64,000 nt of DNA from a virus (taxonomy: Duplodnaviria; Caudoviricetes). How positions within the stretch are numbered: position 1 is the stretch's first letter; each line of letters begins with the position of its first letter. The notes beneath the pieces were generated by a model that did no database searches, was not told the origin of the DNA, and was given only the letters and a program-made list of their open reading frames with translations. The stretch lies in the IMG/VR virus record IMGVR_UViG_3300025711_000239, positions 54,645-118,644 of that record; one strand, given 5' to 3'. This document shows positions 3,205 to 64,000 of this stretch, one piece after another. The position numbers and the translations under genes were made by a program.

Positions 3205-3986
3205 TCGATCCGTCCGTTGCTGGTGGTGTCAAAATTGCGGGCAGGAATGCAGTAGTAAAGCGATCCGACATTCTGCGTACCGAAGCCGTAAATGCGGTGA
3301 ACGTACCACCAGCGGCGTACCAGGTTGCCGCTGGCCATCTCTTCGTTCCACTCAAGGATTGAGCCAACCGGCACACCTTCAGCGGCGATGCGCAGGATCA
3401 GTACGTCGTCAGTAAATCCATCCTGTTCGCCATCGGCATCGAGCACCTGGAAACTTTCGCGCTCGTCCGGACAATCCAGCACCGTGACAATGACCGGATC
3501 AGCATCCTCATAGCTCAGGTGACGCTGGTTATTGTTGAGCTCGGTAAACGACGGCTGTTCAAAGCCCGTTTCATCGTCCACCTCGCCAACGTCGCGCATG
3601 TCCGGCAGGTATAGCAGCGCCTGAAACGCGCTGTAATCGCTCTCAATCGCTTTAATCCAGTCGCGGCGGACCATGTTGTTAAACGAGGCGTGGCCTTTGT
3701 AGCGCGGCTTTAGCGCCGTGCTCTGTTCGCGTGCCGCGAGCGTGTCCGGGAGCGGGGCGCTCAGCGGGTCATGATCCTCACTGCTATTGCTGTTAGCGTC
3801 ATCAGGACCGCCAGCGGTATCGCCATCGGGTGACGAGGCGGCGGTCGGCGCGGCGGCGTCCAGATCGATAACAGCGCTGCTGCTATCCGGCGTATCGACG
3901 GCGGAAGAGGGTTGCTCTGTTTCACTGCTGGTGGCCTCGTTGATCGTCGGTGGATTGTCGGCCAAAAATTCGTCGTACCGTCCCAT
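3201..3986 (-). CDS. Tail stability protein (P1 gp7-like)
   Basis: 261 aa with acidic low-complexity N-terminus; synteny. Confidence 0.6.
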   Translation of the reverse strand: MGRYDEFLADNPPTINEATSSETEQPSSAVDTPDSSSAVIDLDAAAPTAASSPDGDTAGGPDDANSNSSEDHDPLSAPLPDTLAAREQSTALKPRYKGHASFNNMVRRDWIKAIESDYSAFQALLYLPDMRDVGEVDDETGFEQPSFTELNNNQRHLSYEDADPVIVTVLDCPDERESFQVLDADGEQDGFTDDVLILRIAAEGVPVGSILEWNEEMASGNLVRRWWYVHRIYGFGTQNVGSLYYCIPARNFDTTSNGRIE

Positions 3987-5203
3987 TACTGATTACCTGC
4001 TTTTGTCTGGTTTTTTGCGTATTCAATAAACATCTTCTCGGCTTGGGCGCGGGGCGTGCCGCTCAGCACCAGGGCGTCAATGAACGTCTGGCGCTGGATC
4101 TTCGCCTGGTCTGCCAGCTGCTGACGCAGAAGGGCGTTTTTGGCCTTTTCGTCCGCCAGTTCCGCCTGCTTCTTCGCGGCGCGGGTGCGCTGCGCTGCGG
4201 TCAGCTTCTTGGCACGGGTCAGCTGGCCGCGCAGTTTGTCGATCCGCCCGTCGTCGTTGTCCAGGCGCTTCGCAAGCGCGCCCATGCGCTTCTGATACTT
4301 CTCATGCTCACGCTTAACAGCGGCGACGTTCGTCTGCGAACTACGGTTGCGGTTGAACTTCGCTTTGTCGGCGTCAGTGAAGTGCTCAGTGGTTTTGCGC
4401 GGGTCATCGCCATAGGCGTTGTTACTGGCGCTTTTATGCAATGCCTGGCCGATGCGCACCTGCCATGAGGCGGATTGCAGACGGGTGAAGGCGTGAATGA
4501 CGTGCTTACAGGCGACGCCTTTCAGATTCGGGTTTTTCTCTTTGGGGTAGGCGTACTCTTTTGGCGGGGCAAGCGCGAAATTGCCTGCTGTGGCGATGTA
4601 GCGATACCAGTACTGGTGACGGCCACAATCGCAATCAAAAGAGACGCGGCCAGCGCAGAGTCGCTTGGCAATTTTGGCTGCGCTGTCTTTGGCATCGGTG
4701 ATTTCCTCTATCAGCTGATCCCACTCTTCAAAGCGGAATTTCACGCGGTGATGCTTATCGAGCGAGGCGGCGGACGCCTCCACACTAACGGTCAGGACGT
4801 TATGTTTAAGCGTCGTGGGCGTGGCGCGCTTAATGCCACTTCCGTCATCTACCCGGTTGTTGGCGCGCTTAATGTCGATCTGCTGACTACCGGCCACCAG
4901 CTGCGCATACGTGATACCTGCCTGTGAAGAATTGAACTGCTGGCGGGCGCCGGCGCGATTTGCTTCGAACCCTTTCAGATCCTCTTTCGTGAAGAACGTG
5001 CCGGACTTCTTTTTGCCCAGGGCGATAATGTCGTCCAGCGCCTTGTTCTTCAGGGTCAGCGGGTTGAGCGTGCGCCGCGCTATGCGCCGGGATTTACGGC
5101 GGTCTTTATCAATCTGGTCAAAGACGCGGGAGAACTCTTTGGAGGAAAGCCCTGCCGTGTCGTAGCGCCCGGACCGTGTGCGGGCAAACGGAGTATCAGC
5201 CAC
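3986..5203 (-). CDS. Tail protein with SWIM-like Zn finger (P1 gp25-like)
   Basis: CDC...CKH motif; 405 aa; synteny. Confidence 0.65.
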   Translation of the reverse strand: MADTPFARTRSGRYDTAGLSSKEFSRVFDQIDKDRRKSRRIARRTLNPLTLKNKALDDIIALGKKKSGTFFTKEDLKGFEANRAGARQQFNSSQAGITYAQLVAGSQQIDIKRANNRVDDGSGIKRATPTTLKHNVLTVSVEASAASLDKHHRVKFRFEEWDQLIEEITDAKDSAAKIAKRLCAGRVSFDCDCGRHQYWYRYIATAGNFALAPPKEYAYPKEKNPNLKGVACKHVIHAFTRLQSASWQVRIGQALHKSASNNAYGDDPRKTTEHFTDADKAKFNRNRSSQTNVAAVKREHEKYQKRMGALAKRLDNDDGRIDKLRGQLTRAKKLTAAQRTRAAKKQAELADEKAKNALLRQQLADQAKIQRQTFIDALVLSGTPRAQAEKMFIEYAKNQTKAGNQ

Positions 5204-5528
5204 TGATTAGCTCCGGCTTGCCACCAGCAAAGTCGCGTATGCGCCCGCGCAGCCACGCCATATCGGGCAGAGAAAGCGTCTGGCCTGCTGGCAGCGGCTC
5301 CATTTCTGACTCTATTCCGCATAACAGACGGAATACCCAGCGCAGATCGTCATTACCTTCATAGGCGCGGTATGCCGCCAGGTCAGCGCGGAATATCTCG
5401 TCAAGACGGATGGTGTAGTCGCGGTTGTCTTCGTGGAATGAGGCGGATCGCTTGATCACTTCCTGATGGAAGAGGCTGCGTAGCACCACGTCACTAATTG
5501 AGCGATCGTCAAGGCGGTTATAACTCAC
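5196..5528 (-). CDS. Baseplate wedge protein (P1 gp26-like, gp53/LysM-like)
   Basis: RADLAAYRAY..LRWV..LPAGQTLSLP motif; synteny. Confidence 0.65.
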   Translation of the reverse strand: MSYNRLDDRSISDVVLRSLFHQEVIKRSASFHEDNRDYTIRLDEIFRADLAAYRAYEGNDDLRWVFRLLCGIESEMEPLPAGQTLSLPDMAWLRGRIRDFAGGKPELISG

Positions 5529-6178
5529 AGGATACGTTCCTCGTCACTGATTCGCTTGCCGGTCAGCGACTCCGGCACGGCTTCAGCGGCTTTGATTTTT
5601 TCATAGCCGATGATGCGTTTAAGCGTGTCCATAAGGGTCGGCTCCTGCTCTGCGGTCGCGGCGGTCATGGCATTGATGTAGTCCGCTGATGCCACGTTGT
5701 TGTAGCCCACAGCGAAGCAGCACAGAATGGTTAGTACCTGCTCCGGGCGTATCTCGCGCCAGTTGATCCGATAGACCTCTTCACCGCTGGCGTTGTATTC
5801 CACCTCAACGATGGAGTCTGGAATCTCAAATGCGCCCTTGTTCTCTGCTGGCAGCGCAATGTTGTCCTGCAGCAGGAGCTCGTTGTAACGCTCGATGCCA
5901 ATGAGTACCGCTGCACGCCCGTCGCTTCCCCGCGTTTTTAGTGAGATATGGTTGCCGCCTACTTCGTTGGCCACTTTGCCGGTTGCTTCATCCACCAGCA
6001 CCTTGAAGCCCTGTTTACGCAGTGCCTCAACGAAGGGGGCGAGTTTGGCCAGCTGCTTTCGCATGCCCTTTGGCAGCGTCTGCGGCTTTGACATAACGAG
6101 CGTGTGCTCTTCGTAAATGGCGGTGATCGCCATCGGCTGATTAGTGGAAAGACTGATTACTGCGATTTTCTGTTTCAC
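5525..6178 (-). CDS. Conserved P1-family hypothetical protein, first gene of the late operon
   Basis: 217 aa, coupled to the gp26-like gene; late-promoter motif upstream. Confidence 0.55.
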   Translation of the reverse strand: MKQKIAVISLSTNQPMAITAIYEEHTLVMSKPQTLPKGMRKQLAKLAPFVEALRKQGFKVLVDEATGKVANEVGGNHISLKTRGSDGRAAVLIGIERYNELLLQDNIALPAENKGAFEIPDSIVEVEYNASGEEVYRINWREIRPEQVLTILCCFAVGYNNVASADYINAMTAATAEQEPTLMDTLKRIIGYEKIKAAEAVPESLTGKRISDEERIL

Positions 6179-13379: not shown

Positions 13380-13885
13380 TTTGTGATAAGTACATAATTA
13401 ACATGAATTTAGGTTAAGTATAATTCCAGAGTTACTAGCACCATTAATTTTAGTAGTTAAGCTGATCACTTGTTGATCAACCCTTAGAGTGTGCATACAA
13501 TCAGAAAAAACCGAAAACGCACAAATGAATGAAATGCGTTAACTTTTTCTGGCTTGGAGTTGTATGGATATGACTGGCATAGCAAACTTTGCTTTTAACT
13601 TAATGGTGCTTTTCTTTGCTTTTCTGGCACTGGTGTCTGTAGTGATCTTGTGCGGATTGCCCGCAATTTTGCGAGCATTTGACGCCTACTTAGCAAAATT
13701 AAACTCGCTCAACTGAACCTAAGATATATCCCCGCAATAAATTCAATTTCTTACCTGATGATCAGCTGGTTGCACCTAAAGCCAGCTGGTCTCGCTACTT
13801 CCAGAAAATAAAGTTTAATATAAATTTTAAAAAAATTTAGAATGTCATAAACTTATATCCGAAATTAACCACTGGATTACAGAGT

Positions 13886-14068
13886 ATGCACGTTACAACC
13901 AAAACCCTTAATCTAAGCCAGCCGTTCCTTATCAGTGCTTTACTCGCTGAAATTGCAAGACTTCATCCCGGTGCCAGCGTCAGCAATGCGCAATTCAGTG
14001 CCATTATCGAGGCTGCTAACCATATCGTCTGTGCTTTTAGCCGGAAAGTGGTGATGACTCATGACTGA
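13886..14068 (+). CDS. Small hypothetical protein, first gene of an early operon
   Basis: Overlaps the next gene; operator motif A just upstream. Confidence 0.5.
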   Translation: MHVTTKTLNLSQPFLISALLAEIARLHPGASVSNAQFSAIIEAANHIVCAFSRKVVMTHD

Positions 14069-14705
14069 CCGCTTTTACATGATCTGTACCAGAGATACGG
14101 TAGGCAGTAATGCCTCTTTCTGGTGCCAGAATGGTCATGGCTATCACACCAACATCGACAAAGCGCACGTTTATACCCAGGCAGAAGCACAGAGCCGGTG
14201 GAATACGGGCCGGAGTATCGATCAACCCGTTTGCGCTGACAGCGTTGATGCGCTGGCCGTCGTTCACGTTGACCACCAGCATGTACCCGGCGAATCATTC
14301 ATTACCCCTGATTGCAGTCGGTATGTTGCCTTTCAGAAAGGGCGCTGGGACGGCAATGATCTTTACTGGCTGCGCAACGGCGATGTGCCGACAACCGACT
14401 TCACACAAGCTGCAATTTTCAATAAACCGGGCGATACCTCCAATCTGGTTTGGCTACCGTTCGCCACGGCCGACGCAGTAAAGCGCCGCACGTTCCCTAT
14501 CGCCATGCTGAATCATCGCCGCATGGTGCAGGGTGCTGGCTTACGCGTACCGGCGCACATCAGCCGCGCACGCCGCCGCAAGCCAGGCACAGGAAAGACT
14601 CGCCATAACTGCCCGAACTGCGGGCGCATTAACTGGCAACTAAACCCTTATGACTTTGAAGGCTGCGCTGACTGGCAGTGTGAAGGGACGCCTACGCATG
14701 GATAA
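14061..14705 (+). CDS. Phage hypothetical protein with C-terminal CxxC
   Basis: 214 aa, coupled in the operon. Confidence 0.6.
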   Translation: MTDRFYMICTRDTVGSNASFWCQNGHGYHTNIDKAHVYTQAEAQSRWNTGRSIDQPVCADSVDALAVVHVDHQHVPGESFITPDCSRYVAFQKGRWDGNDLYWLRNGDVPTTDFTQAAIFNKPGDTSNLVWLPFATADAVKRRTFPIAMLNHRRMVQGAGLRVPAHISRARRRKPGTGKTRHNCPNCGRINWQLNPYDFEGCADWQCEGTPTHG

Positions 14706-15174
14706 GGCCGTCTTAGACATGTGCTGTGGCCCACGCATGATGTGGTTCGATAAAGCCGATCCCCGCGTGTTGTATTCCGATATCCGGGAAGAGACCCACC
14801 AGCTGCCCGACCGGGAGCTGGTTATCAGCCCGGACGTGATTGCCGACTTCCGTTCACTGCCTTTCCCGGATAACTCTTTTTATGTGATTGCCTTTGATCC
14901 ACCGCACCTGGAGCGTGCAGGCGAGAAGGGCTGGCAGCGCCTTAAATACGGGGTGCTTAATCGCGGAACGTGGCGCGCTGATTTGCGCGCCGGTTTTACT
15001 GAAGCCTTCCGCGTGCTGCGCCCGAACGGCCTGCTGATTTTTAAATGGAATGAAACGCAGATCCGGGCGCGGGACATTCTGGCACTGACTGACCAGAAAC
15101 CCCTGTTTGGCCACATCAGTGGCAAGCGTGGTTTAACGCACTGGTTTACCTTCATCAAAGACGGAGAGCAGTAA
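14698..15174 (+). CDS. Small SAM-dependent (probably amino-DNA) methyltransferase
   Basis: LDMCCGPRM motif I and FDPPH motif IV; ATG at 14698 overlaps the upstream gene end. Confidence 0.8.
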   Translation: MDKAVLDMCCGPRMMWFDKADPRVLYSDIREETHQLPDRELVISPDVIADFRSLPFPDNSFYVIAFDPPHLERAGEKGWQRLKYGVLNRGTWRADLRAGFTEAFRVLRPNGLLIFKWNETQIRARDILALTDQKPLFGHISGKRGLTHWFTFIKDGEQ

Positions 15175-20302: not shown

Positions 20303-20833
20303 ATGAAATACGCGCAGTTGAAGCGCTTCTGGCATGTGGAAGTTATTGGTGTTGAGAAAAAGTTTTCCTGGGTTCGGCTTGCAACAAGGCTCCGCAACAA
20401 GCCGGGGCTGAAGTTCATTTTCTGGTGGCGCTTAGCTAGTTTTCTTTATGAAAATGGATACCGTCGCATCGCGTACCGTATTCACTCACGCATTAAAGGC
20501 CGCTTTGCTTGCGATATCATGTTGGGCGCAAAGATAGGCGAGGGCTTGAGTATCGCACATCATGTTGGCGTCGTAGTCACCAAGCGGGTTGTGGCAGGGC
20601 GCAATATGCGGCTGACGCAAAACTCCGTAATAGGAAACAGTGGGAAAGGAAAAGACGGTTCAATTCAAATTGGCGATAACTTTTTCCTGGGATCAAATAG
20701 CTGTGTAATAGCTGATAATCTGGTGATCGGGAACAACGTTACCGTCGGTGCAATGAGCTTTATTAATAAAGACATTCCTAATAACTCCACAGTTTACACC
20801 CGCAAAACTGTAGAGCTCGTAGAAAGGGATTAA
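20303..20833 (+). CDS. Hexapeptide-repeat O-acetyltransferase (CysE/WcaB-like)
   Basis: AKIGEGLSIAHHVGVVV, IGDNFFLG and IGNNVTVGAMSFINKDIP repeats. Confidence 0.85.
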   Translation: MKYAQLKRFWHVEVIGVEKKFSWVRLATRLRNKPGLKFIFWWRLASFLYENGYRRIAYRIHSRIKGRFACDIMLGAKIGEGLSIAHHVGVVVTKRVVAGRNMRLTQNSVIGNSGKGKDGSIQIGDNFFLGSNSCVIADNLVIGNNVTVGAMSFINKDIPNNSTVYTRKTVELVERD

Positions 20834-21016
20834 ATGCCAGCTACCTGGCGAATGAAGAAAATCGCGTAGGCGTCTTCTCCTTCTCCCGAATGACCACCAG
20901 CTATATGGCTGGTGGATTGTTACTGGCTTAAGCCTGCCAGTTATGCTGTACCTGACAGGCTTAACATCAACTAAGCCCGAATTTATTGGCCGGACATTGT
21001 TACAGGTAATTCGCCA

Positions 21017-21379
21017 TTGATATTTTTAGCGGTGGCTGGTGGCGTTTTGTTGGCACTGGGTGGAGTCGGTACGCTGGTTTATCTCAAAACTGGCGATCAG
21101 TACTACAGCGTTTCCAATCTGGAAGAGTGTAAAAACTACACTAATGACCAAGCAAAAGAAGCAGTACTAAGCGCACGTCTTAAACAGCCTAATGGCTGGA
21201 AAAGCTGGGGGGATGCTTCTAAGGTCGCCAATCAAAATGGCATAAGGTTCATTGATAACGAAATCAAAGGCCCGGACAAGATCTGGATGATCCCGTTTTA
21301 TGACGAAAAAATCCCTGATAAGAAGCAGTTTGGCATGCTGGATTGTGGGACATTAACAGTCGAGTTTGCGTCTGAGTAA
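21017..21379 (+). CDS. Orphan YebF/Cmi-family protein
   Basis: TM anchor, C..., WMIPF, LDC...VEF motif. Confidence 0.65.
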   Translation: MIFLAVAGGVLLALGGVGTLVYLKTGDQYYSVSNLEECKNYTNDQAKEAVLSARLKQPNGWKSWGDASKVANQNGIRFIDNEIKGPDKIWMIPFYDEKIPDKKQFGMLDCGTLTVEFASE

Positions 21380-53588: not shown

Positions 53589-54593
53589 ATGGAAGCACTC
53601 CGCACGGTAACGGATCGTTTTTCATTGATTGATAAAATTCGTCGGTTTACACCACAAAACGACCGCAACTACCTGCTGCGATCTGTTCGTGAAACGTTCG
53701 CCAGCCCCGAAACTCAGGAGCGTATTCAGCTGGGGGAAATGTTCGGCTATTACGGCCACGGACGCCGCGCCGCCTACTACGCAAAGACTGGACGGCTTAA
53801 CCTGCCGGAATTTGCGGTTGTGATGATTGATGGTAAGCCAGTGACACTGGAAAACGTGCCGTCGAACCGCACTCTGGATGCCAGCGTGGATGATAACGGC
53901 ATCGTGACTCACGTTCAGGAGATTCTGGATACCGAACCCGGCAATATCGTTGACGGCATGAACCGCTCACGCGCTGGTGGCTGGTCCTGGGCTACTGGCG
54001 GCGACGATAACGCCATTTCGAAAGTGACTAGCTTCCACGGCTTCGACTATGTGACGAACCCAAATTATATCAGTCAGGACCACCCTGCTCTGCTTCTGGA
54101 ATCGGCCAGCGAACGAGCCGACATGATGCACGCGGGCTTAATAGAAAAGGGATATTCGGAGAATCAGGCTGCTGACATTATTCAACACTTTGAAACCCTG
54201 CGTAGCCAGACAGCAATGCTGGAGTCCGTGGATTTTTCACTGCTGGAGTCTGCGCTGCATATTGAGCACGGTAAGCGTCTGGAGGTAGAGGAACGTCTGC
54301 GAAACGCTCAGCTAATGCTCGAAAGTGCTGGCACCGTGGCAAAGGCCCGTCGCCGGATCATGAAGGATGCGCTGGCTAACATGCCGCTGTTTTTAAGTAA
54401 AGTTCAGCAGGCGGCATTATGCCGGATGGACACGCCGGAAGACGCGCAGATCGTCGCTGCAATGCTGGAATCAATCGGCACAAATGCGACGGCTACACTG
54501 CCGATCGGCACCGCCCACCAGCACACATTACCGCAGACGCGCCCGCCAGCTGTGGACTCAACACCACTGCTGTGGATCAACCCAAGAAAATAA
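53589..54593 (+). CDS. pro: Head-processing protease
   Basis: GYYGHGRR, GGWSWA and GFDYV..PN motifs; synteny. Confidence 0.8.
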   Translation: MEALRTVTDRFSLIDKIRRFTPQNDRNYLLRSVRETFASPETQERIQLGEMFGYYGHGRRAAYYAKTGRLNLPEFAVVMIDGKPVTLENVPSNRTLDASVDDNGIVTHVQEILDTEPGNIVDGMNRSRAGGWSWATGGDDNAISKVTSFHGFDYVTNPNYISQDHPALLLESASERADMMHAGLIEKGYSENQAADIIQHFETLRSQTAMLESVDFSLLESALHIEHGKRLEVEERLRNAQLMLESAGTVAKARRRIMKDALANMPLFLSKVQQAALCRMDTPEDAQIVAAMLESIGTNATATLPIGTAHQHTLPQTRPPAVDSTPLLWINPRK

Positions 54594-54853
54594 GGGAAAA
54601 AAGAAAACCGTGCCCTGAAAACTGGGGCACGTTTTAGTCAAAACTAAAAATTAGGAAAAAGCTGAGTGTTGATCCGGAACGGGATCGAGTTTATTATCCG
54701 CGCTCTGATTCAGTTTAGCGGCTGAATGAGAGGACGAAAAAAAATCGGCTGTTAGCGCAGACGATTTTTTAAGCAACTTTGTGTGGTCTTCGACAACCAC
54801 ACCGGCGTTGTGCCGTATAACTTCTTTGAACGGAAGTTGGCCTTAAAACCATT

Positions 54854-55780
54854 ATGACGCCAGGTATTGCACCTGTTGTCTCATGGAGAACAACTGTGCC
54901 TATAGTAGCTAATAGCGCCGATCCCGGCAACACTTTTCCCGCATTCTGCTCAAATAACGAGCACAGATCTGTCCGAATTACCGGCTTTGATCTCACCCAC
55001 ATTATTGAACTTTCCCCTCTGCCGAAATCTGTCACCCGCGTTTTAAAATTTGCCTGTAATCTGGCCGGTTCTACGTCCGATTTCATCATCATTAAATCGC
55101 TCAGGAATCTGGCTGAAGAAGCCGGTTGCAGTATCTCCACCGTTCAGCGTGCTTATCGTGCTGCCGTTAAGCTGGGGATCCTCAGCTATGAAGAGCAGCG
55201 CGACGAGAAAAATCACAGCGTCAGCAAACCCAGCAAGTACACGTTTACCAGTAAAGCACTGTCCTTTGTACGGGCCAGTCTGGACGCACTGAAAGAGGCG
55301 AATCTGAAGCCGTCCGGACGTCAGACCATAGTTCGGAGAATTATCGCTAACGCCTTCTTTAATAACGATTTTATCCACAACACACCTAGTCAAAATGAAC
55401 AGGCCACCCCTGGTCAAACTGACCAACAAGAAGTAAGAGATCTCTCCAGTAAAAGAAAAATACAAAATGGAGAGGCATTAAATTCTGAGGTTCAAAAGTC
55501 ATCACAAGAACAACCGGCCTTTGTGAAAAAGTTCGGGCTCTACCAGAACACGCAAAAGCAACTGGCTGCAGCATCGTCAGCAGCGCAGAACGAACGAAGC
55601 GCAGAAGAGTTTCAGCGAAAAGGCGGAGTACTGCATGAAGCATATCAGGCGCTGAAATCTACGTTCAGGGCAAAGCCTACTGGTGGCAGGAAGCAAAAAA
55701 GTCGCCGCTATGTTGACTCATTAAGCGGCGACTACTCAAACGTGGACTATGCGATCCCTGAAGGCTGGCGCGGGTATTAG
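54854..55780 (+). CDS. repL: Lytic replication initiator RepL
   Basis: GFDL..NLA..TS..LAEEAGCSISTVQRA..GIL HTH like P1 RepL; perfect DnaA box TTATCCACA at 55371 inside the gene; start possibly GTG 54896. Confidence 0.8.
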   Translation: MTPGIAPVVSWRTTVPIVANSADPGNTFPAFCSNNEHRSVRITGFDLTHIIELSPLPKSVTRVLKFACNLAGSTSDFIIIKSLRNLAEEAGCSISTVQRAYRAAVKLGILSYEEQRDEKNHSVSKPSKYTFTSKALSFVRASLDALKEANLKPSGRQTIVRRIIANAFFNNDFIHNTPSQNEQATPGQTDQQEVRDLSSKRKIQNGEALNSEVQKSSQEQPAFVKKFGLYQNTQKQLAAASSAAQNERSAEEFQRKGGVLHEAYQALKSTFRAKPTGGRKQKSRRYVDSLSGDYSNVDYAIPEGWRGY

Positions 55781-56268
55781 TCGGTAATCACACCTCCGGA
55801 TTTCAGGTAAGCGTCGAGTAGCGTCTCAAGGGGATGCGTTTTCTGACCATACGGCGAACCAGTGAGCGAGGCCCAGATATCGTTAGTTTTGCCGATCGCT
55901 GTGCGGATCCGTCCGGCCAGCACGTCGGAATAAGCCCCTTGCTCTTTCAGCAGCTGGTCAAGCAATCGCTCCTGTGAGGCAGGGCTAAAATCAGGCAGAT
56001 TCAGCTGGTTTTTATAGGCAGGCCAGTAGCGATAAAGCTGCTGATAGCGGCCTGCTGCGGTAGACGCCAGGCCATGACTGTTAAGCGCTTTTGCACGGCG
56101 ATGCGCAAACGGGTGATCGCTGAAGTCGGTAAAGACTTCGCCCTGCTTTTCGCCCAGCCCGGTCACGATGACGTCATAGCCATTCATACGGGTTAACGGG
56201 TGAGTATTGGTTCCTTCGGAAAAGGCCAGCATGTCGCCAAAGGCTTTACGGTTTGGGGATTGGTCCAT
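55777..56268 (-). CDS. Lambda R-type lysozyme/transglycosylase
   Basis: SEGT, STAAGRYQ, DFSPASQ, WASL.G..YGQ motifs; start set at MDQSPNR, downstream of the late promoter. Confidence 0.92.
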   Translation of the reverse strand: MDQSPNRKAFGDMLAFSEGTNTHPLTRMNGYDVIVTGLGEKQGEVFTDFSDHPFAHRRAKALNSHGLASTAAGRYQQLYRYWPAYKNQLNLPDFSPASQERLLDQLLKEQGAYSDVLAGRIRTAIGKTNDIWASLTGSPYGQKTHPLETLLDAYLKSGGVITD

Positions 56269-56302
56269 TTTGGTTCCGCTCTCTATGTTGATGAAGAGCC
56301 GG

Positions 56303-56323
56303 ACTGTATGGAGTTTGTAATTT
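56303..56323 (-). promoter_or_regulatory. Putative late promoter of the lysozyme gene
   Basis: AAATTACAAACTCCATACAGT. Confidence 0.6.
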
Positions 56324-56458
56324 CCAGTGAAAGAAAGGCCGCATGGTGCGGCCATTGTGCGTTAGCTCATAGCGGGCATTAAGCACCTATAGTCCGCTCT
56401 GTGCCAAAAGCGGACATTCCGTTCAATAGCTCTAACTTCTCTTTTGGCTTATAGGATG

Positions 56459-57340
56459 TCAATTATTTTGGCTGCGTCTATATTCGTCTACCTTATTTTT
56501 GTGCTTAATCATTAATTCTCTATCAGCTTCTGGAAGAAAACTATAGTCGAAAAATTTATCAATTTTCTTTTTCGCACACAATCTGATTAAATCAGGCGTG
56601 AAATATTCATATACAGGGTTGAAATCATTATTTTTCTTCATTGCTATTTCAGCATCTAATATTCTACGGTCTAACTCATTTAAACTTGAATTCAGCCAAT
56701 GCATAAGCTCATGAAAGCTGTTGATTTCATCTGCTTGAATTCCTGTATATCTTGAAACGGCTAACGGATAACTTATATCTTCGTCTATAATTAGATCAGT
56801 GACAATGATAAGAATCATTGCACATGAAAGTATCTCTCTGTCGTCAAAAAGATCATATCTAAGTTCATATTTTATTCTTATTTTCTTTGAGTGCCCCCAA
56901 TACCTTGTGCTAGTTAGAATGGCTCTATTTAAACAGGATTTTAATATATTGGATTGTACCAAGTGGATTGTTTTTTTCTTAAACTCATCAAAAGTATATA
57001 AGCTTATATTTGTATGCTTGGTAGCTTCTATGGCACCGGTCTGGAACCCATTTTTGGATATAATAAAACCTCTATCAGCTCCAGTATTTTGAATTACTGT
57101 CGAAAACGCATGAACAACTTCCTTGGTTACATTACTATTCCAATATTTAGCTTCTACAAACCATTTGAAATCCGTGCCAAGATATTTTGACTCCACTACT
57201 ACATCTATATCTGAGCTTCCTCTTGCCCCATCTACTGTAACGTTTGTCTTAGCGCTAGCGCCTATGCTTTTAAAATGCTCGCAAATTTCTTCTTGAAATT
57301 TATACCACCCAGACTCTAGGTTTTTGTTATATTTAGTCAT
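56459..57340 (-). CDS. Mrr-cat-type PD-(D/E)xK nuclease with helical C-terminal domain
   Basis: FQEE, DIDV, VEAKYW and GFQTGA motifs; very AT-rich. Confidence 0.8.
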   Translation of the reverse strand: MTKYNKNLESGWYKFQEEICEHFKSIGASAKTNVTVDGARGSSDIDVVVESKYLGTDFKWFVEAKYWNSNVTKEVVHAFSTVIQNTGADRGFIISKNGFQTGAIEATKHTNISLYTFDEFKKKTIHLVQSNILKSCLNRAILTSTRYWGHSKKIRIKYELRYDLFDDREILSCAMILIIVTDLIIDEDISYPLAVSRYTGIQADEINSFHELMHWLNSSLNELDRRILDAEIAMKKNNDFNPVYEYFTPDLIRLCAKKKIDKFFDYSFLPEADRELMIKHKNKVDEYRRSQNN

Positions 57341-58098
57341 CTAAGGATCTCATAATATTTCAAATAAGGGAGCATTACTTGGTTGCAATGAAATAAAAGT
57401 AATGCTAGTAGTAGGGTTGCCAATGATCTATTTTCATGTAGACTTTTCTATCTCACTAATCGTCAAAATGCAATTGTTTACTTCCAAAATTTTTAATTGC
57501 AGCATCTTAGTTTTTTCTTAACCAATACGGCGTTATTATTTAAAGCTTGAGAAGCTAGCACATTGTTGCTGTTAACTAACATATATTAGCCCGTTTATGG
57601 CTCACAGCGCTCCGCTAGTTCTGTCTGATGTCTGCCGTGCTAAAAGCGGTATCTATCCATATAAACCTAAGCTGTCAGGCTAAAAACGTACCTCTTCGAT
57701 GTTGGGCGGAGCTTACCAGCTTGTCGGTTAATGCAGTTTGGCTGACGACATGGCTGACCAAGGAAACTTGAGGGGACTATTAAATTCGCTTAGGGAGGTG
57801 TGGTTCAATGCAGGTGATAAAACTAAGGAAAAGATCTGACTAGTTATACGGCTTCGAGTACCAAAATACGAGTTGTTGACAAGAATTTGCATTCTCTCTT
57901 AGTTAACGAGCCGAATGCTGTGGCTAGGATCAAATAACCAATTTCTTCATCACAGTAAACTTAGCCTACACCAGCCACTTTTTTTCTCAAAAGCTCAAAT
58001 CTGTAGACAAATTGTACAGACTAAATGTATAACAAATAATTAGGATTATTCTCACTCCTGACTGATGTCTAACAGACTGTCCACGTACTCTTATCTGG

Positions 58099-59049
58099 AT
58101 GAAAAATATGGAAATTGAGAAAAACACGATTGATGATGTTATGCGGGCTGTGTTTGAAAATATCCTGTCAAATGGTGTTCCTGTTGAAACAACACGGGGA
58201 CCGACAAAAGAGATTCTGGGTACACACATCATTTTGAGCAATCCGATTTGCCGGATTAGCAGAACAGAATCCAGAGGTAAAATATTCACCTGTCTGGGTG
58301 AGTTGATGTGGTACCTATCAGGCAGTGACGAGGTTGAATCTATTCGCTATTACATCTCAAAATACCAGGATTCTGCAGAAAGTGATGGCACAATTAATGG
58401 CGCTTACGGACCTCGTCTCTTTGGTACCAAGAATGAAATTAACCAGATTGAGAATGTCATCCGGCTTTTAAAAAAACGCAACACATCTAGGCGAGCAGCC
58501 ATACAGCTTTTTGACGCAAACGATATAGCCCATCCCTTCGTTGAAGTCCCCTGTACTGTCGGGCTCCAGTTTGCGATTAGGAATGATTCCCTCGATATGT
58601 TCACATTCATGCGCTCTAACGATGCGCGAGCAGGACTGGTTCACGACATATTTGCATTCACGATGCTTCAGGAAATGATTGCAAAAACCCTCGGTTTAAA
58701 TTTGGGCGTTTATCGCCATTATGCGGCAAGTCTGCACATCTATACCGAGGATATTCCCCTCATCGAAGCTGCGCTTAAAGAGGGTTATGCGCCATCTGCA
58801 CCAGTTATGGTGGCAATGCCCACAGAGGATATAAATCACTACTTATGCATCATTGTTGATGCAGAGAAACGCATCCGAGAGGGCGACATTCCAGACATTG
58901 ATACGCTAAGCCTGAGTGAATACTGGAAAGATGTCCTTCGTATGCTGGCGATATTCAGATGCAAAAAAGACAAGGACTTGCCAGCTGCTCGGTCCATTGC
59001 CGGGAAATTGCAAAATCAGTCATACAAAATTTATCTTGAGTGGTTGTGA
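58099..59049 (+). CDS. Thymidylate synthase-fold enzyme (dCMP hydroxymethylase-like)
   Basis: AYGPR, SRRA, PCT, MRSND, HD in place of the PFN Asn, and SLHIY. Confidence 0.85.
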   Translation: MKNMEIEKNTIDDVMRAVFENILSNGVPVETTRGPTKEILGTHIILSNPICRISRTESRGKIFTCLGELMWYLSGSDEVESIRYYISKYQDSAESDGTINGAYGPRLFGTKNEINQIENVIRLLKKRNTSRRAAIQLFDANDIAHPFVEVPCTVGLQFAIRNDSLDMFTFMRSNDARAGLVHDIFAFTMLQEMIAKTLGLNLGVYRHYAASLHIYTEDIPLIEAALKEGYAPSAPVMVAMPTEDINHYLCIIVDAEKRIREGDIPDIDTLSLSEYWKDVLRMLAIFRCKKDKDLPAARSIAGKLQNQSYKIYLEWL

Positions 59050-59996
59050 GGGAGAAAATGAAACGACAGGATCTAATTGATGAAATTTCAGAGCAGCTCG
59101 AATCGTTCAGTACACACGAAATCCCGCTCAGGGGATTAGATACCCCCGACAAAATCACAACGCTCGCCGCACAGATACTCGACAGCAAGCGTCGTATTGA
59201 GTACGTCGGAGCCATTGGTAGAAATAAGATATCCCCGCTTCGGGGAAATCCCCACAGCGATATTTTTGATCCGCTACGAGCTGCATGGTTGCATGTTTAT
59301 GAAGGGAATGTAGATGAGGCGTGCTGGCTTATTTTCCTGTCCACCCACTTTGGCAAACATCTCAAATATGGTTGGCAATTGTGCGCCGACATTTATGGTG
59401 GACTCGGTGGCGATGTATGGACTTGGGAGAAAGTGGTTGCGGAAGTGGACACCTTTCACGCCTGGTATGAGGGCTGCTATCGCCAGATGCTGGCAGACGG
59501 TCAGAAAAGAAGGTTTGGGAACCATAGAAAGTACGAATCCCTCAAACCGGACAGCAAGCGCCCCCTTCCACGCGTTATCAGCTCATACGTAGCGTGGGTA
59601 GGAAACGTAGGTAGTCACGAAGCGCGATTTGCTGAAGCCAAAGCCGCATCTAGTAGTCAGGAAGAGTACTTTGATATTCTTTACCGAAGCATGAGGGCTG
59701 TTTTGTCATTTGGGCGGGCTGGAAGGTTCGACTTTCTGACAATGCTCATCAAGTTCTGCATTATTGATGCCAAGCCGGGAACGCTGTATCTGAACGGGGC
59801 AACAGGACCTCTGGATGGCGCAAACCTTCTATTTTACGGTGAAGCGAGAAATGCGGCCAATTATAAGGTATTAGACGATCTTCTGGCGAGGCTCAGCGCC
59901 TTCATGGACATGGGACTGCTTGAAATGCAAATTCTTGAGGATGCTCTTTGCAACTGGCAGAAATCACCCTCTCGCCACGTTTACTTTGGCGGATGA
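59040..59996 (+). CDS. alpha-glutamyl/putrescinyl thymine pyrophosphorylase-like (clade 3) protein
   Basis: FDPL.AA, EACWL.FL..HFG, FGNHRKYESL, FGR..RFD.L, GATGP..GA and EDALCNWQK motifs; coupled to the TS-fold gene. Confidence 0.7.
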   Translation: MVVREKMKRQDLIDEISEQLESFSTHEIPLRGLDTPDKITTLAAQILDSKRRIEYVGAIGRNKISPLRGNPHSDIFDPLRAAWLHVYEGNVDEACWLIFLSTHFGKHLKYGWQLCADIYGGLGGDVWTWEKVVAEVDTFHAWYEGCYRQMLADGQKRRFGNHRKYESLKPDSKRPLPRVISSYVAWVGNVGSHEARFAEAKAASSSQEEYFDILYRSMRAVLSFGRAGRFDFLTMLIKFCIIDAKPGTLYLNGATGPLDGANLLFYGEARNAANYKVLDDLLARLSAFMDMGLLEMQILEDALCNWQKSPSRHVYFGG

Positions 59997-59998
59997 TT

Positions 59999-61081
59999 TC
60001 AGGACAGATCTTCACGGTTATATTTGACTTTGAATTTGGCAAAATGATCAAAGGGAATTTTTTGGGCGTGCTGTAACTGCCCCAGCACTATCCCTTTTGA
60101 TACACCAATTTTCCGAGCAAATTTAATAATATTTTTCCAATTTCGCCCACTCAGCTTGTCAAACTCTGCACGGTATGCTGGGGGAATCAGGACGTTGCTG
60201 GAAAACTCGTTTGCTTCCTGTTCTTCTTTTTCAGAAAGGCCACTCATTCCTTCTATGCGGTGCTGTTCACAGTTGTGCAGAACCAGATGGCCAATCTCAT
60301 GGAACAACGTAAACCAAAAATGATCGTCTCTGAGATACCGAAAACTCATTATTAGTGTCGCTTTGCCAGACTCAAAAAAACAGGTAGCGCCGCTTGCTGG
60401 ACAACCTGTTGGCGTTGGCAGGATCACAAGCGCTACACCAGCGTCAGCGAGTATGCTGCGTATCGCAGGAAGAAATACTTTGGGATCAGCTTCAAGAGAA
60501 TGTTTTCTTAAAGCTTCTAGGCTGCCTTTAAGTATTTCCTTATCCCATGCATAAGTTCTCTGTTTTCGCGAAATATATTCAGCTTTCTTGAGCCAAGTTA
60601 TTACGGCCATTTCTTCCGTTCTGAAAGCTTCAGATTTTCTGAAAGCTATAGCAGTCTGTTTACTTTTATAATAATCAAACCATTCAGGTACAGATGAAAC
60701 GCCGAAAAAACTCAGGCAATACTCTACTTTTTTATTACCACTCAGGCCCTTCGGGATCCAACCCAGTTTACTCATATCTGACGTAGGCAGAGACTGAACC
60801 CATTCATTATTTTGGCGAATGATGGCATCTTTATGTTGGCGATATTTATTTTCACGACTGAGCCAGAAAGTCGTGCTGACATTGAAGAGAGATTCAAGTT
60901 TGTTGGCAATCTTCTCAGTGAGAATAAGCTCACCAGAAATCAACTCACGACTTTTAATCATGGAAAGGCCAACTCTTTTACTGAGCTCTTCTTCGTTGAA
61001 ACCAAGTTCATCCATGAGGTCTATTATGGTATCTCCGGGGGCTGACACCCAATCCGTGTTAAATCCGTTATCAGAAACCAT
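59999..61081 (-). CDS. HigA-type HTH fused to ImmA/IrrE metallopeptidase
   Basis: PG..I HTH; DHFWFTLFHEIGH; E.EAN.F. Confidence 0.88.
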   Translation of the reverse strand: MVSDNGFNTDWVSAPGDTIIDLMDELGFNEEELSKRVGLSMIKSRELISGELILTEKIANKLESLFNVSTTFWLSRENKYRQHKDAIIRQNNEWVQSLPTSDMSKLGWIPKGLSGNKKVEYCLSFFGVSSVPEWFDYYKSKQTAIAFRKSEAFRTEEMAVITWLKKAEYISRKQRTYAWDKEILKGSLEALRKHSLEADPKVFLPAIRSILADAGVALVILPTPTGCPASGATCFFESGKATLIMSFRYLRDDHFWFTLFHEIGHLVLHNCEQHRIEGMSGLSEKEEQEANEFSSNVLIPPAYRAEFDKLSGRNWKNIIKFARKIGVSKGIVLGQLQHAQKIPFDHFAKFKVKYNREDLS

Positions 61082-61523
61082 AATCTTCGCCTATATGAAC
61101 CAATTTCAACCGAGTTACCCGACCCCAATCAAGTGAATTGTCTGCCTGACGGGGTGGTTTGAGATGACCATTTACAAAGTACATCTTAACGCCTTCGCTA
61201 AGGTTAATTGTAACGTAATCGCATCCATTTTCGCATAAAAACTCTGTTTTAAGAAAACTTGGAAGCTCAGCTATCGATGCTGAAGACCAGATATCAGCAC
61301 ACCGCACGCGCAGTTTTGCAGCTACGGCATCACCGAACAAATTTATCCCTGCTTCTTTAAACTCAACTGAATCTCTGAGTTCGGAACTGTCACAAAAAAT
61401 CTGCAATGGGTTACCAACGCTGAGCGATTTATCAGAGAATATTATATTGTAATGTATAAAAAATCCACGGTTTAACGGGCAGGTACATGAGGATGTCAAT
61501 GAAATTTCAATAATTACGCTCAC
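61071..61523 (-). CDS. HigB-like (killer suppression) protein
   Basis: Overlaps the antitoxin start; G..VA.KL..R...I and DW..V..L motifs; true start probably further downstream. Confidence 0.55.
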   Translation of the reverse strand: MSVIIEISLTSSCTCPLNRGFFIHYNIIFSDKSLSVGNPLQIFCDSSELRDSVEFKEAGINLFGDAVAAKLRVRCADIWSSASIAELPSFLKTEFLCENGCDYVTINLSEGVKMYFVNGHLKPPRQADNSLDWGRVTRLKLVHIGEDYGF

Positions 61524-61787
61524 CTCTTAGTAGAAACTGTCATCTAGGAACAGTGAACAAAGCTTATAACTAAAATCTCCTCATTTTTCCGCTGTAGCTC
61601 TCTGGTCCTACCCACGAAATGCGAACTCACTTTGTTGCGGCCAATATTGATCTCCATTCGGCATTCTATTCTTTATCATCCATTTGGAACGCACCATGAC
61701 TAGTAAGCAGCGCATAAAGCACTAAGGGTACCTGACCAACTCTCCGTTGATTCACTCATAACGCTGTTAGCAATGTCCGCTTTTCGT

Positions 61788-63031
61788 TGTGAGTTCAACG
61801 GGTCGATGCAACGCTATCCTTAATCAAGGGGGGCGTTGCCATGAAACGAAGAACTCGGATTAACTACACGCCAGAGCAGAAGGCGATTATCTGGGACAGA
61901 TATAAGCAAGGTGATTATCTGGGACAGATATAAGCAAGGTGATTCCCTGCATGATATCGCCAGAATGTTCGACAGATATCATTCTTCTATTATGCCCAAT
62001 ATCCATCAGACTGGTGGATACCGCCCCCTGTCCAAAAGCGGCATCCGTTAGCGCTTTCACTTGATGAAAGAGAGGAAATATCCAGAGCGCTGGTAGCAAA
62101 ATCAGCATCAGGGCGATCGCAAACAAACTATCGAGAGCCCCCTCAACGATTAGCCGGGAAATAAAGAGGCACGCTGGTGCAAATCAATACCGTGCATCAA
62201 AAGCGGATACTGCTGCGTGGGAAAATGCTCTGAGACTAAAACCTTGCAAGCTAATTGAAAGACCCAAAGTGTAGAATCATCGCAGAGAAGATGCATCAGG
62301 ACTGGTCGCCGGAACAAATCGCCGGTTGGCATAAACGCTGTTATCCGGATAATCAGGAAATGCATGTGCCACACGGAACGATATATAAAACGCTTTTTAT
62401 ACAAACCCGGGGTGCATTAAAAAAAGAACTGCAGCAATGCCTCAGAAGCGTAAGAGTCGTGCGTAGATCCAGAACATCATCGCTTAAAGGGAAAGGATTA
62501 GGGTCAATCCGGGATACGATCTCTATCAGCGAAAGACCACCTGAAGCCGCTGACAGAGCCATACCCGGTCACTGGGAAGGTGACCTGATCCAGGGCTCTA
62601 AAACTCCTATATCGTCACCCTCGTAGAACGTCATTCCCGTTTTGTTATGCTGGCCAGGATCGGGGACAACAAGACCATAACGGTTATATCTGCACTCATC
62701 AAACAAGCCCGGGAATTACCTGCTGAGCTTTATAAAACATTAACATGGGGCTGGGGCGCTGAAATGACCAGCCACACCCGGTTTACTGTAGCCACAAATA
62801 TCCAGGTTTACTTCTGCAATCCTCAATCCCCCTGGCAACGCGACTCCAATGAAAATACAAACAGATTGCTTAGGCAGTATTTTCCAAAAGGAACTGACTT
62901 ATCGGTTCACAGCCAGCAAAGACTAGACAGTGTTGCCAGGCAGCTCAACGAGAGGCCAAGAAAAACGCTAGACTATGAATCACCCGCAGAGCGTTTTAAC
63001 CAATGTGTTGCATCCATCGGTTGAACTCACA
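61788..63031 (+). mobile_element. IS30-family element with inactivated transposase
   Basis: Terminal IRs TGTGAGTTCAAC..GATGCAAC; fragments WSPEQI, GHWEGD, SPWQR..NENTN.LLRQYFPKG; frameshifts plus a 28-bp tandem duplication at 61885-61940. Confidence 0.92.
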
Positions 63032-63082
63032 GCGAAAAGCGGACATTGCTAACAGCGGTCTATGTGAAACTCGCGGAGCAGG

Positions 63083-64000
63083 TCACCTATATGTCTGAAC
63101 TTTGAACTCACTGAGATCACTACTTTCAACTATCTCAAAAAAATTGATGTCATTTTTCATATTTTTATCAATAAGGTTTTTGAAGGAAAGTTTACGTTCC
63201 TTACTCATTCTCAAGCCAAAAATGACTTGGTTCAATGTCCCAGGAAAATCAAACAAACCAGATTCTTCTTCAATGTAACGCCATTCTTTTTCATACTTCC
63301 AAGCAGGAGTTTTAGTGCTGATGGTTGATCTAAATGTATCGTCTTCAAATGAAACTCTTTGAATATTAGATACGCCACTGTAGGGTGCCATAATGTGCAC
63401 TTCGTTTTTAAAACCAACCTTGAACGTAGGTTTTTCTTTGGCGTAATTAACAGGTAAACAATTTCGGGCGCTAGCTAATTTACAATCACCAGATGTACTA
63501 AATCCAAATACAATACCTTTATGATTATCTCCATAGTGTGCCCACATCAATTCATTGCTACAAGTTTCACTAAGGCTAAAAACCCCAACTAAAGACAGGC
63601 GGTGTCGCATATCTTTAAATATATCTCTTGGATTTGACAACTTCATACCATGTTCAGAATATAGAGTCCGAAGAGCCTTCATTTTTCGATCGTGACTCAA
63701 GTTTCTAAAACGCTTCAACCATTTTCTAGTTGATCGTTCATTCATTGAAAAAAGCGTTTCCGGTGGCTGAAATGTAGGCATGGTAGTTACAGCCCCCATT
63801 ATTTGCCCCCGCTCTAGTTCAAGAATTGTCCTTTCCTCCCAATCTTTGGGAATCTCACCAATTCTACATTCTAACGGATCATTTAGTTGTTTTGGGGATG
63901 CAAGCCAGATTTTTTTATTTTTAATTATTTCTTCTGTTCGCTCAGAATCATCTCTATACTTATAAAGAACCTCGGGCTTTATTTTTTCAGGCTCAGTCAC
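63083..64000 (-). CDS. DUF2971-family protein (start at window edge)
   Basis: LYKYR, NDPLE, LMWAHY.D.HKG and K...W.YEKEWR motifs. Confidence 0.8.
   Translation of the reverse strand: MTEPEKIKPEVLYKYRDDSERTEEIIKNKKIWLASPKQLNDPLECRIGEIPKDWEERTILELERGQIMGAVTTMPTFQPPETLFSMNERSTRKWLKRFRNLSHDRKMKALRTLYSEHGMKLSNPRDIFKDMRHRLSLVGVFSLSETCSNELMWAHYGDNHKGIVFGFSTSGDCKLASARNCLPVNYAKEKPTFKVGFKNEVHIMAPYSGVSNIQRVSFEDDTFRSTISTKTPAWKYEKEWRYIEEESGLFDFPGTLNQVIFGLRMSKERKLSFKNLIDKNMKNDINFFEIVESSDLSEFKVQTYR

Follow-up and report, generated by a model that had tools for sequence, protein, structure and literature searches.

We analysed a 64,000-nucleotide stretch of viral DNA (Duplodnaviria; Caudoviricetes), positions 54,645 to 118,644 of the IMG/VR record IMGVR_UViG_3300025711_000239 and called the window below, and found that it carries a cassette of four genes. 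A thymidylate synthase (TS)-like gene is followed by a gene for an enzyme of the aGPT-Pplase clade 3/ADDT type (Pplase3), and tail-to-tail with these two stand a small conserved gene and a gene for a protein that joins an Xre-type helix-turn-helix (HTH) domain to an M78 (ImmA/IrrE) peptidase domain (HTH-M78). These four genes form a self-contained and horizontally mobile unit (Table 1).

Table 1. Features of the cassette, its upstream neighbour and an optional partner gene; positions are those of the window unless another locus is named
Feature	Position	Strand	Evidence and remarks
Mobile four-gene cassette	57990-61691	n/a	~3.7 kb; blastn 97.4% identity to a Candidatus Pantoea communis contig (L004)
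TS-fold enzyme	58099-59049	+	Pfam PF00303 (Thymidylat_synt) 1.2e-27; predicted deoxycytidine monophosphate (dCMP) C5-hydroxymethylase, MilA-like
aGPT-Pplase clade 3/ADDT-like enzyme (Pplase3)	59040-59996	+	PF18746 (aGPT-Pplase3) 2.3e-94; PF18724 (ADDT) 7.7e-66
Xre-type HTH + M78 (ImmA/IrrE) peptidase, 360 aa	59999-61081	-	PADLOC PD-Lambda-2_B 1.3e-29; Peptidase_M78 1.8e-8
Small conserved protein, ~108-111 aa	61071-61406	-	family hidden Markov model (HMM) 8e-24; 11-nt overlap with HTH-M78 start
Mrr_cat nuclease-domain protein	56459-57340	-	Pfam Mrr_cat 9.1e-16; cassette neighbour, not member
Uracil-DNA glycosylase (UDG)-like gene, ~266 aa	e.g. L018 7199-8002	+	between TS-like and Pplase3 genes or just after Pplase3

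Extent, linkage and carrier of the cassette

The initial annotation of the window had flagged the interval 56459-61523 as the unit, and comparison with other genomes gives the cassette borders of Table 1 instead. The match to the Ca. Pantoea communis contig covers exactly these positions between unrelated flanks, the differing upstream flank beginning 109 bp before the TS-like gene, which fixes the mobile unit and leaves the Mrr-type nuclease gene outside it. Contigs of the sequencing runs X17 and X18 cease to match the window at 61479, and the match to a Pantoea agglomerans plasmid ends at 61786. Both runs are labelled RNA and look like DNA because their contigs are 20-34 kb long; run X15 is probably DNA.

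A search with Pplase3 returned 3259 relatives in the protein collection at E <= 1e-5, and when one genome per species was scanned by pattern, 375 encoding stretches emerged, of which 80 loci were kept; IMG/VR added 24, for 104 loci that, by their record titles, come from many phyla. Gene co-occurrence was then scored by tblastn of the window proteins against these 80 genome and 24 viral loci. The TS-like gene lies directly upstream of Pplase3 in 77/80 genome loci and 24/24 viral loci (101/104), the three misses being contig ends, and the HTH-M78 gene is convergent and downstream of Pplase3 in 78/80 and 23/24 (also 101/104), with a small open reading frame (ORF) directly upstream of it in 72 of 78 loci. 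The 3' ends of the Pplase3 and HTH-M78 genes overlap in 35 loci and are 0-10 bp apart in another 30, together 65 of the 76 measurable loci, and in the window the two stops (59996 and 59999) are 2 bp apart. The coupling of the TS-like gene to a clade-3-like gene, the two-base gap and the assignment of the HTH-ImmA gene to the enzyme pair had all been read correctly from the window alone. On the other hand, the expectation that the flanking genes would recur together was borne out for HTH-M78 and failed for the Mrr gene, which is present in 0/80 genome and 0/24 viral loci. No flanking family occurred in more than 11 of the 80 genome loci; integrases were the commonest, and next came recombinases, transposases and type I restriction-modification (R-M) genes.

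Two short contigs from the soil metatranscriptome X19, at least 99% alike to the window at 58241-58491 in the TS-like gene and at 60794-61031 in the HTH-M78 gene, are at most a weak hint that these genes are transcribed. Promoter and terminator scans found sites that were no more frequent than in shuffled sequence.

The cassette is present twice in the 118,644-base provirus record, at record positions 20451-21290 and 113795-114634, which are 93,344 bases apart, and the record probably extends past a single unit length of a circular element, a phage-plasmid of ~93 kb. A circular P. agglomerans plasmid of 94,249 bp (NZ_CP134741.1) shares 99.3% identity with the 5.2 kb around the cassette, and it is annotated with P1-type genes (ddrA, olxA, an SNF2 gene of 6.9 kb, and genes for the portal, head processing and lysis). 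The portal protein shares 63% identity with its counterpart in phage D6 and 50% with the one in P1. This gene set and the D6/P1-like portal indicate that the cassette travels as accessory-region cargo on a D6/P1-like Pantoea phage-plasmid, and a close relative of the window's phage-plasmid carries Dar-type anti-restriction genes. As had been noticed from the sequence, the region is GC-poor and Chi-free, unlike the backbone: GC content is 0.38-0.49 across 56-62 kb and mostly 0.50-0.62 along the backbone, and all of the window's 67 Chi sites (GCTGGTGG; 2.08 expected from shuffles) lie at or before position 54522. The Chi count is thus zero in the accessory region that makes up the last 9.5 kb (54523-64000), against a Chi-rich backbone at 1-54522.

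Most copies of the cassette are chromosomal and stand beside integrases and R-M genes. Megablast of the region gave no match in Escherichia coli genomes or phages, and 237 of 5426 complete E. coli genomes have a Kluyvera-type cassette (95.9% identical), in each case on the chromosome. Two E. coli contexts were read: in one, a selC island with an integrase, the cassette comes right after a type I R-M system, and in the other it is accompanied by a dGTPase (PADLOC defence model, 2e-109), insertion sequence (IS) elements and a further R-M system of type I. In both of these contexts (L109 and L110, 15499-15762) the cassette is followed by an 87-aa 'MazG-like family protein' with no Pfam or PADLOC match.

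Two enzymes related to pyrimidine-modifying proteins

Among proteins of solved structure, the best relative of the TS-like enzyme is the cytidine monophosphate (CMP) 5-hydroxymethylase MilA (5b6d, E 6.4e-43), while ThyA structures reach 1e-16 or weaker. The NCBIfam thymidylate-synthase cut-offs were all missed (best 108 bits vs 174.55; the rest 27-77 vs 108-427), and the best full-length match among 50,697 phage records has 27% identity, with none reaching 60%. NZ_CP134741.1 is annotated with an alternative start, ATG 58108.

Residue conservation was counted over 77 sequences. The catalytic nucleophile Cys152 is found in 77/77, as is Asp183 (VHDIF), which occupies the position of ThyA Asn177 and bears on cytosine specificity. 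Two positions that bear on deoxyribose are equally constant, with Ser173 at the position of MilA Ala176 and ThyA Ser167 in 77/77 and Arg131 at that of MilA Lys133 and ThyA Arg126 in 76/77. At the ThyA Leu143 position, where an acidic residue is associated with water access and hence a hydroxymethyl rather than a methyl product, the window protein has Glu149, and 66 of the 77 sequences have Asp or Glu. The RSND motif that the initial annotation had singled out comprises residues 172-175 and aligns with MilA RAND and ThyA RSAD, and the Asp that it had placed opposite the ThyA Asn (LVHDIF) is Asp183, aligned with Asp in MilA and Asn in ThyA. Its call of a cytosine-type enzyme is thus upheld, and the Ser and Arg mark the enzyme as deoxy-type in addition.

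According to passages of the MilA work, the changes Ala176Ser and Lys133Arg shift that enzyme from CMP to dCMP, and the Asp is a mark of cytosine users (PMC5175136); the corresponding N177D and L143D/E rules for ThyA-fold enzymes are stated in parts of a 2026 paper (PMC13326640). The combination of deoxy-type Ser and Arg with a cytosine-type Asp and an acidic side chain in the Leu143 position predicts a dCMP C5-hydroxymethylase, and judging from these residues we consider this activity likely. A minority alternative is that the TS-like enzyme would instead 5-hydroxylate dCMP, given that the same paper describes enzymes that share this residue pair, Asp plus an acidic residue, and that can be flavin-dependent 5-hydroxy-dCMP synthases (PMC13326640, in part). 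The enzyme resembles MilA and the T4 dCMP hydroxymethylase in its fold, its catalytic Cys, its cytosine-type Asp and its acidic residue at the ThyA L143 position, as far as these are covered in the cited parts of PMC5175136 and PMC13326640. Unlike MilA, it has the deoxy-type Ser and Arg, and its partner is neither MilB nor a glucosyltransferase.

That partner, Pplase3, had been called aGPT-PPlase clade-3-like, and the Pfam profiles agree (Table 1), with 316 bits for PF18746 (cut-off 25) and 223 bits for PF18724 (cut-off 26.2). Reportedly, the aGPT-Pplase clades were defined by Iyer et al. in 2013, and our literature and structure searches found no assay or structure for clade 3. The open frame from 59040 overlaps the TS stop; annotated homologues are 312 aa long, which makes ATG 59058, 9 nt past that stop, the probable start. 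Longer forms amount to one protein of 666 aa with integrase domains, probably a gene-call fusion. By tblastn, Pplase3 was found in 0 of 50,697 GenBank phage records.

Profile search of Pplase3 against PDB sequences gave no match at E <= 10, and Foldseek against the PDB gave none at E <= 0.001. An exhaustive structure alignment (VIA-align, 48,161 chains) of its AlphaFold (AF2) model (pLDDT 93) placed 8z2m, gp46 of phage PaMx11, at the top, with a Z score of 10.4 (which helical folds can reach by arrangement alone) and a root-mean-square deviation of 4.5 over 219 residues. The next fold matches were the queuine-salvage DUF2419 (Z 8.7) and then helix-hairpin-helix DNA glycosylases (Z 5-8), and viral predicted structures in BFVD that are named AADT, for amino acid:DNA transferase, matched with probability 1.0. 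In the cited parts of PMC11472151, PaMx11 gp46 is a 5-PmdU glycinyltransferase with Cys247 as its proposed nucleophile. All of the 26 family members compared keep E300, D301 and C304 of Pplase3, which lie in the motif LEDALCNWQK. For the clade 2 enzymes, passages of PMC8989533 describe an essential Cys and Glu and, as substrate, DNA in which a dedicated kinase has phosphorylated 5-hydroxymethyldeoxyuridine (5-hmdU). We regard Cys-dependent chemistry on a hydroxymethyl-pyrimidine as a reasonably probable activity of Pplase3. Complex prediction of the TS-like enzyme with Pplase3 gave a score of 0.00, which speaks neither for nor against their pairing.

Control pair, optional partners and kinases

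The HTH-M78 protein has its HTH at the N-terminus and its peptidase domain at the C-terminus. The PD-Lambda-2_B model (PDLC03982) covers residues 15-341 of its 360, and the peptidase motif HExxH (HEIGH in the window) is kept in 77 of 78 family members. A HigA model (TIGR02607) also scores on this protein, at 9.7e-5 and under its cut-off. The small ORFs upstream of the HTH-M78 genes belong largely to one family, with 70 of 73, the window's included (8e-24), matching a single HMM. The window's small protein likely starts at TTG 61406 (111 aa), which aligns with the family N-terminus, and its open frame extends to GTG 61523. This ORF had been labelled HigB, a label that is not confirmed: the window ORF itself has no Pfam, PADLOC, NCBIfam or PHROG match, a search of PDB sequences gave none either, and the Pfam family HigB-like_toxin was found in 1 of 45 members of the small-protein family, at E 0.0032. 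In the Atlas, 9 of 30 matches fall in clusters labelled RelE/ParE/HigB (20% HigB-like), and with that one Pfam member a HigB-like nature is weakly indicated.

PD-lambda-2 itself is described in passages of PMC9519451 as a validated abortive-infection system with a HigB-like A component, an Xre-peptidase B component and a third gene, C; there, B is toxic alone and is rescued by A, and C is needed for defence and not for neutralisation. The cassette is like PD-lambda-2 (Vassallo et al. 2022) in its Xre-HTH + M78 protein and in the small gene that overlaps the start of this protein, as component A does in the cited passages (PMC9519451). It is unlike PD-lambda-2 in that the small protein misses the A model and two convergent enzymes take the place of C.

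Several loci carry further genes with the cassette. The UDG-like gene (Table 1) occurs in 26/80 genome and 4/24 viral loci (30/104). Its product had no Pfam family even at E 10, and its profile found nothing credible among PDB sequences (best E 0.031, to a retron reverse transcriptase). The predicted structure (pLDDT 92.5), on the other hand, matched thymine DNA glycosylase (TDG), family 4/5 UDGs, UdgX and SMUG1 with probability 1.0 (best E 5.7e-5), and a G-x-N-P-S motif is invariant in the family. The modelled protein thus has a TDG/UDG-superfamily fold. DUF4031 was found in 13 of the 104 loci, and a NUDIX protein matching the PADLOC candidate PDC-S07 in 6. These UDG-like, DUF4031 and NUDIX partners suggest chemistry on the nucleotide pool and on DNA bases.

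The absence of a nucleotide kinase from the window, which had been noted at the outset, extends to all 118,644 bases of the record, where Thymidylate_kin, Cytidylate_kin and dNK had no matches. With the 5-hmdU DNA kinase of PaMx11 (gp49) as tblastn query, neither the window nor any of 106 loci gave a significant match (best E 0.039).

A predicted defence role and its alternatives

The PD-Lambda-2_B match of the HTH-M78 protein, the R-M and dGTPase contexts and the GmrSD_N protein beside the Ca. Pantoea communis copy make defence, already proposed in the initial annotation, the best reading of the cassette, and we lean slightly towards such a role. To the fuller explanation, in which the mobile four-gene cassette is an anti-phage system with the enzymes as effectors and the other two proteins as their control pair, we give an even chance.

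Under this explanation, the TS-fold enzyme would convert dCMP and methylene-tetrahydrofolate to 5-hydroxymethyl-dCMP, as its residues suggest. The Cys/Glu pair of the clade-3 AADT-like enzyme would then attack C6 of the 5-substituted pyrimidine, and the C5 group would be replaced or removed, a step that would need no DNA kinase, unlike in the phage pathways. Free nucleotide and DNA are about equally probable as the Pplase3 substrate. As a result, the supply of deoxycytidine would be drained or corrupted, or a lesion-like base would enter replicating DNA, and phage DNA synthesis would stall. By homology to PD-lambda-2 A and B, the small protein and the HTH-M78 peptidase, encoded tail-to-tail against the enzymes, would hold the system silent or inactive as long as no phage infects. 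The part of this mechanism that follows the first enzymatic step is what we infer.

A close parallel lies in the thymidine hypermodification of phages M6, ViI, PaMx11 and PhiW-14, which uses a deoxyuridine monophosphate (dUMP) hydroxymethylase, a 5-hmdU DNA kinase as well as an aGPT-Pplase/AADT of clade 2. As in these pathways, the cassette pairs a TS-fold C5 hydroxymethylase with an all-helical, DNA-glycosylase-like transferase with a conserved Glu-x-x-Leu-Cys-x-Trp motif, as far as the cited parts of PMC8989533 and PMC11472151 describe them. Unlike them, it has a TS-like enzyme of the cytosine type, a clade 3 enzyme in place of clade 2 and no DNA kinase that we could find, and it comes with an HTH-M78 control gene; Pplase3 was not found in cultured phage genomes. 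DefensePredictor lists an aGPT-Pplase-containing system among its predicted, unvalidated defence systems, and the legend to its Fig. 6F (Science 2026) adds an HTH and a UDG, which fit the cassette and its UDG-bearing variant; the likeness is one of text and legend only (PMC13092281). Validated E. coli systems in the cited parts of the same paper include TS, deoxynucleoside monophosphate (dNMP) kinase and 5-hmdU-kinase domains (PMC13092281). In that list the validated TS-containing system has a dNMP kinase as its companion and no aGPT-Pplase, unlike the cassette (PMC13092281, in part).

Several results weigh against the favoured explanation. Neither the TS-like protein nor Pplase3 is covered by a PADLOC model, and among the 141 nearest neighbours the top PADLOC family reached 4 (the NUDIX protein, PDC-S07); since these sparse per-family counts lack a background control, they are read as sporadic defence neighbours and not as enrichment. 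The PD-Lambda-2_A model matched 0 of 45 small-protein members, and no match to the C component (P4 antitoxin-like) was found among the other ORFs scanned around the cassette. The regions upstream of the TS-like gene and the small ORF shared no 10-12 nt words and no palindromes with 7-nt arms that could serve as a common operator. With regard to the enzymes, the residue pair shared with 5-hydroxy-dCMP synthases makes the predicted TS-like product uncertain, and the one gp46 segment aligned by hhalign, which sets C304 on Cys247 and E300 on the neighbouring Glu, has a probability of only 6.5%. The host kinase handles 5-hydroxymethyl-dCMP poorly, and without a dNMP kinase this nucleotide may never reach DNA. 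Our literature search, moreover, found no experimental study of the cassette.

The rival that survives best reverses the roles, with HTH-M78 as the killer in an abortive infection, the small protein as its restraint, and the enzymes as an accessory or sensing arm in the place of PD-lambda-2 C, which might, for instance, report phage-altered dCMP or folate pools. The division of labour described for PD-lambda-2 in the cited passages (PMC9519451), with B toxic alone, A rescuing and C needed for defence only, suits this arrangement, as do the PD-Lambda-2_B match and the conserved HExxH. The catalytic residues of both enzymes are, however, invariant across phyla, which suits effectors at least equally, and the optional partners are nucleotide and DNA enzymes (UDG-like in 30/104 loci, DUF4031 in 13/104 and NUDIX in 6/104). 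We regard the reversal as unlikely.

Somewhat less probable is self-modification for anti-restriction, in which the enzymes would place a hypermodified cytosine in the DNA of the element or its host, as in phage hypermodification. Homology to phage base-modification enzymes points that way, and so does the carrier, a phage-plasmid with Dar-type anti-restriction genes in a close relative. Yet neither a dNMP kinase nor a 5-hmdU DNA kinase was found, there is no dCTPase among the Pfam-named recurring flank families, and in addition to its absence from the GenBank phage records Pplase3 was found in only 24 loci among 2.9 million IMG/VR contigs. Copies of the cassette are also mostly chromosomal, near integrases and R-M genes, with a toxin-antitoxin-like controller always attached.

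Two unrelated co-travelling modules, an addiction (toxin-antitoxin) pair and a metabolic pair that makes a free base or nucleoside in the manner of MilA and MilB in mildiomycin synthesis, seem more doubtful still. MilA is indeed the nearest solved relative of the TS-like enzyme, and the second-best fold match of Pplase3 is a DUF2419 enzyme that cleaves queuosine-5'-monophosphate. Independent modules would nevertheless have to account for co-occurrence in 101 of 104 loci and for 3' ends that overlap or nearly abut in 65 of 76; moreover, where MilA has the ribose-type Ala176 and Lys133, Ser is found in 77/77 and Arg in 76/77 sequences, and the flanks show no further biosynthetic genes that recur.

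That the cassette makes a cytosine self-mark as partner of the Mrr-type nuclease next to it, one of the readings proposed at first, is very improbable: the Mrr_cat gene upstream of the window's cassette and the GmrSD_N gene upstream of the Ca. Pantoea communis copy speak for it, but Mrr occurs in 0/104 loci and lies outside the segment shared with that copy, whose different flanks likewise leave the pairing without comparative support. Mrr and GmrSD families are known to cut modified DNA, so a cytosine self-mark would be self-harming.

Returning to the cassette as an anti-phage system, one elaboration would link its enzymes to the optional glycosylase. Infection would trigger a flood of 5-hydroxymethyl-dCMP that only phages with broad dNMP kinases insert into their DNA; the kinase-independent, cytosine-directed clade-3 enzyme and the TDG-like glycosylase that 30 of 104 loci encode would then produce adducts or abasic sites, and the phage genome would be destroyed. 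We offer this as a long shot. If true, it would be a first both for cytosine-directed AADT chemistry and for a defence that marks invader DNA by way of the nucleotide pool. More generally, if the cassette is defensive, enzymes known only as phage counter-defence through base hypermodification would also serve the host, a new effector logic within nucleotide-centred immunity, and the cassette would define the chemistry of aGPT-Pplase clade 3, apparently on a cytosine derivative and without a DNA kinase.

Neighbouring genes in the window

The presence of an Mrr-type nuclease gene upstream of the TS-like gene was read correctly from the window (Table 1). This gene is an independent neighbour of the cassette, separated from the TS-like gene by a 758 bp gap, and it has weak PADLOC matches to PDC-S02 and mREase_IV. 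In NZ_CP134741.1 (L001), an extra ~1.45 kb with an alpha/beta hydrolase gene (13518-14966), missing from the window, occupies the interval between the lysozyme and Mrr genes. Upstream of the Ca. Pantoea communis cassette, L004 encodes a GmrSD_N + Schlafen AlbA_2 protein at 3841-5631 (-). It is the second restriction-enzyme-family nuclease domain seen adjoining the cassette, though the families (GmrSD_N and Mrr_cat) differ.

On the other side of the cassette, and outside the P. agglomerans plasmid match, a DUF2971 protein that is cut by the window end (63083-64000, -) matches the PADLOC candidate PDC-S31 at 4.9e-48; tblastn found it in 0/80 genome and 0/24 viral loci. Between this gene and the cassette, at 62255-63024 (+), lie two adjacent short ORFs of 123 and 125 aa with no Pfam match at E <= 0.001, which look like pieces of a broken transposase.

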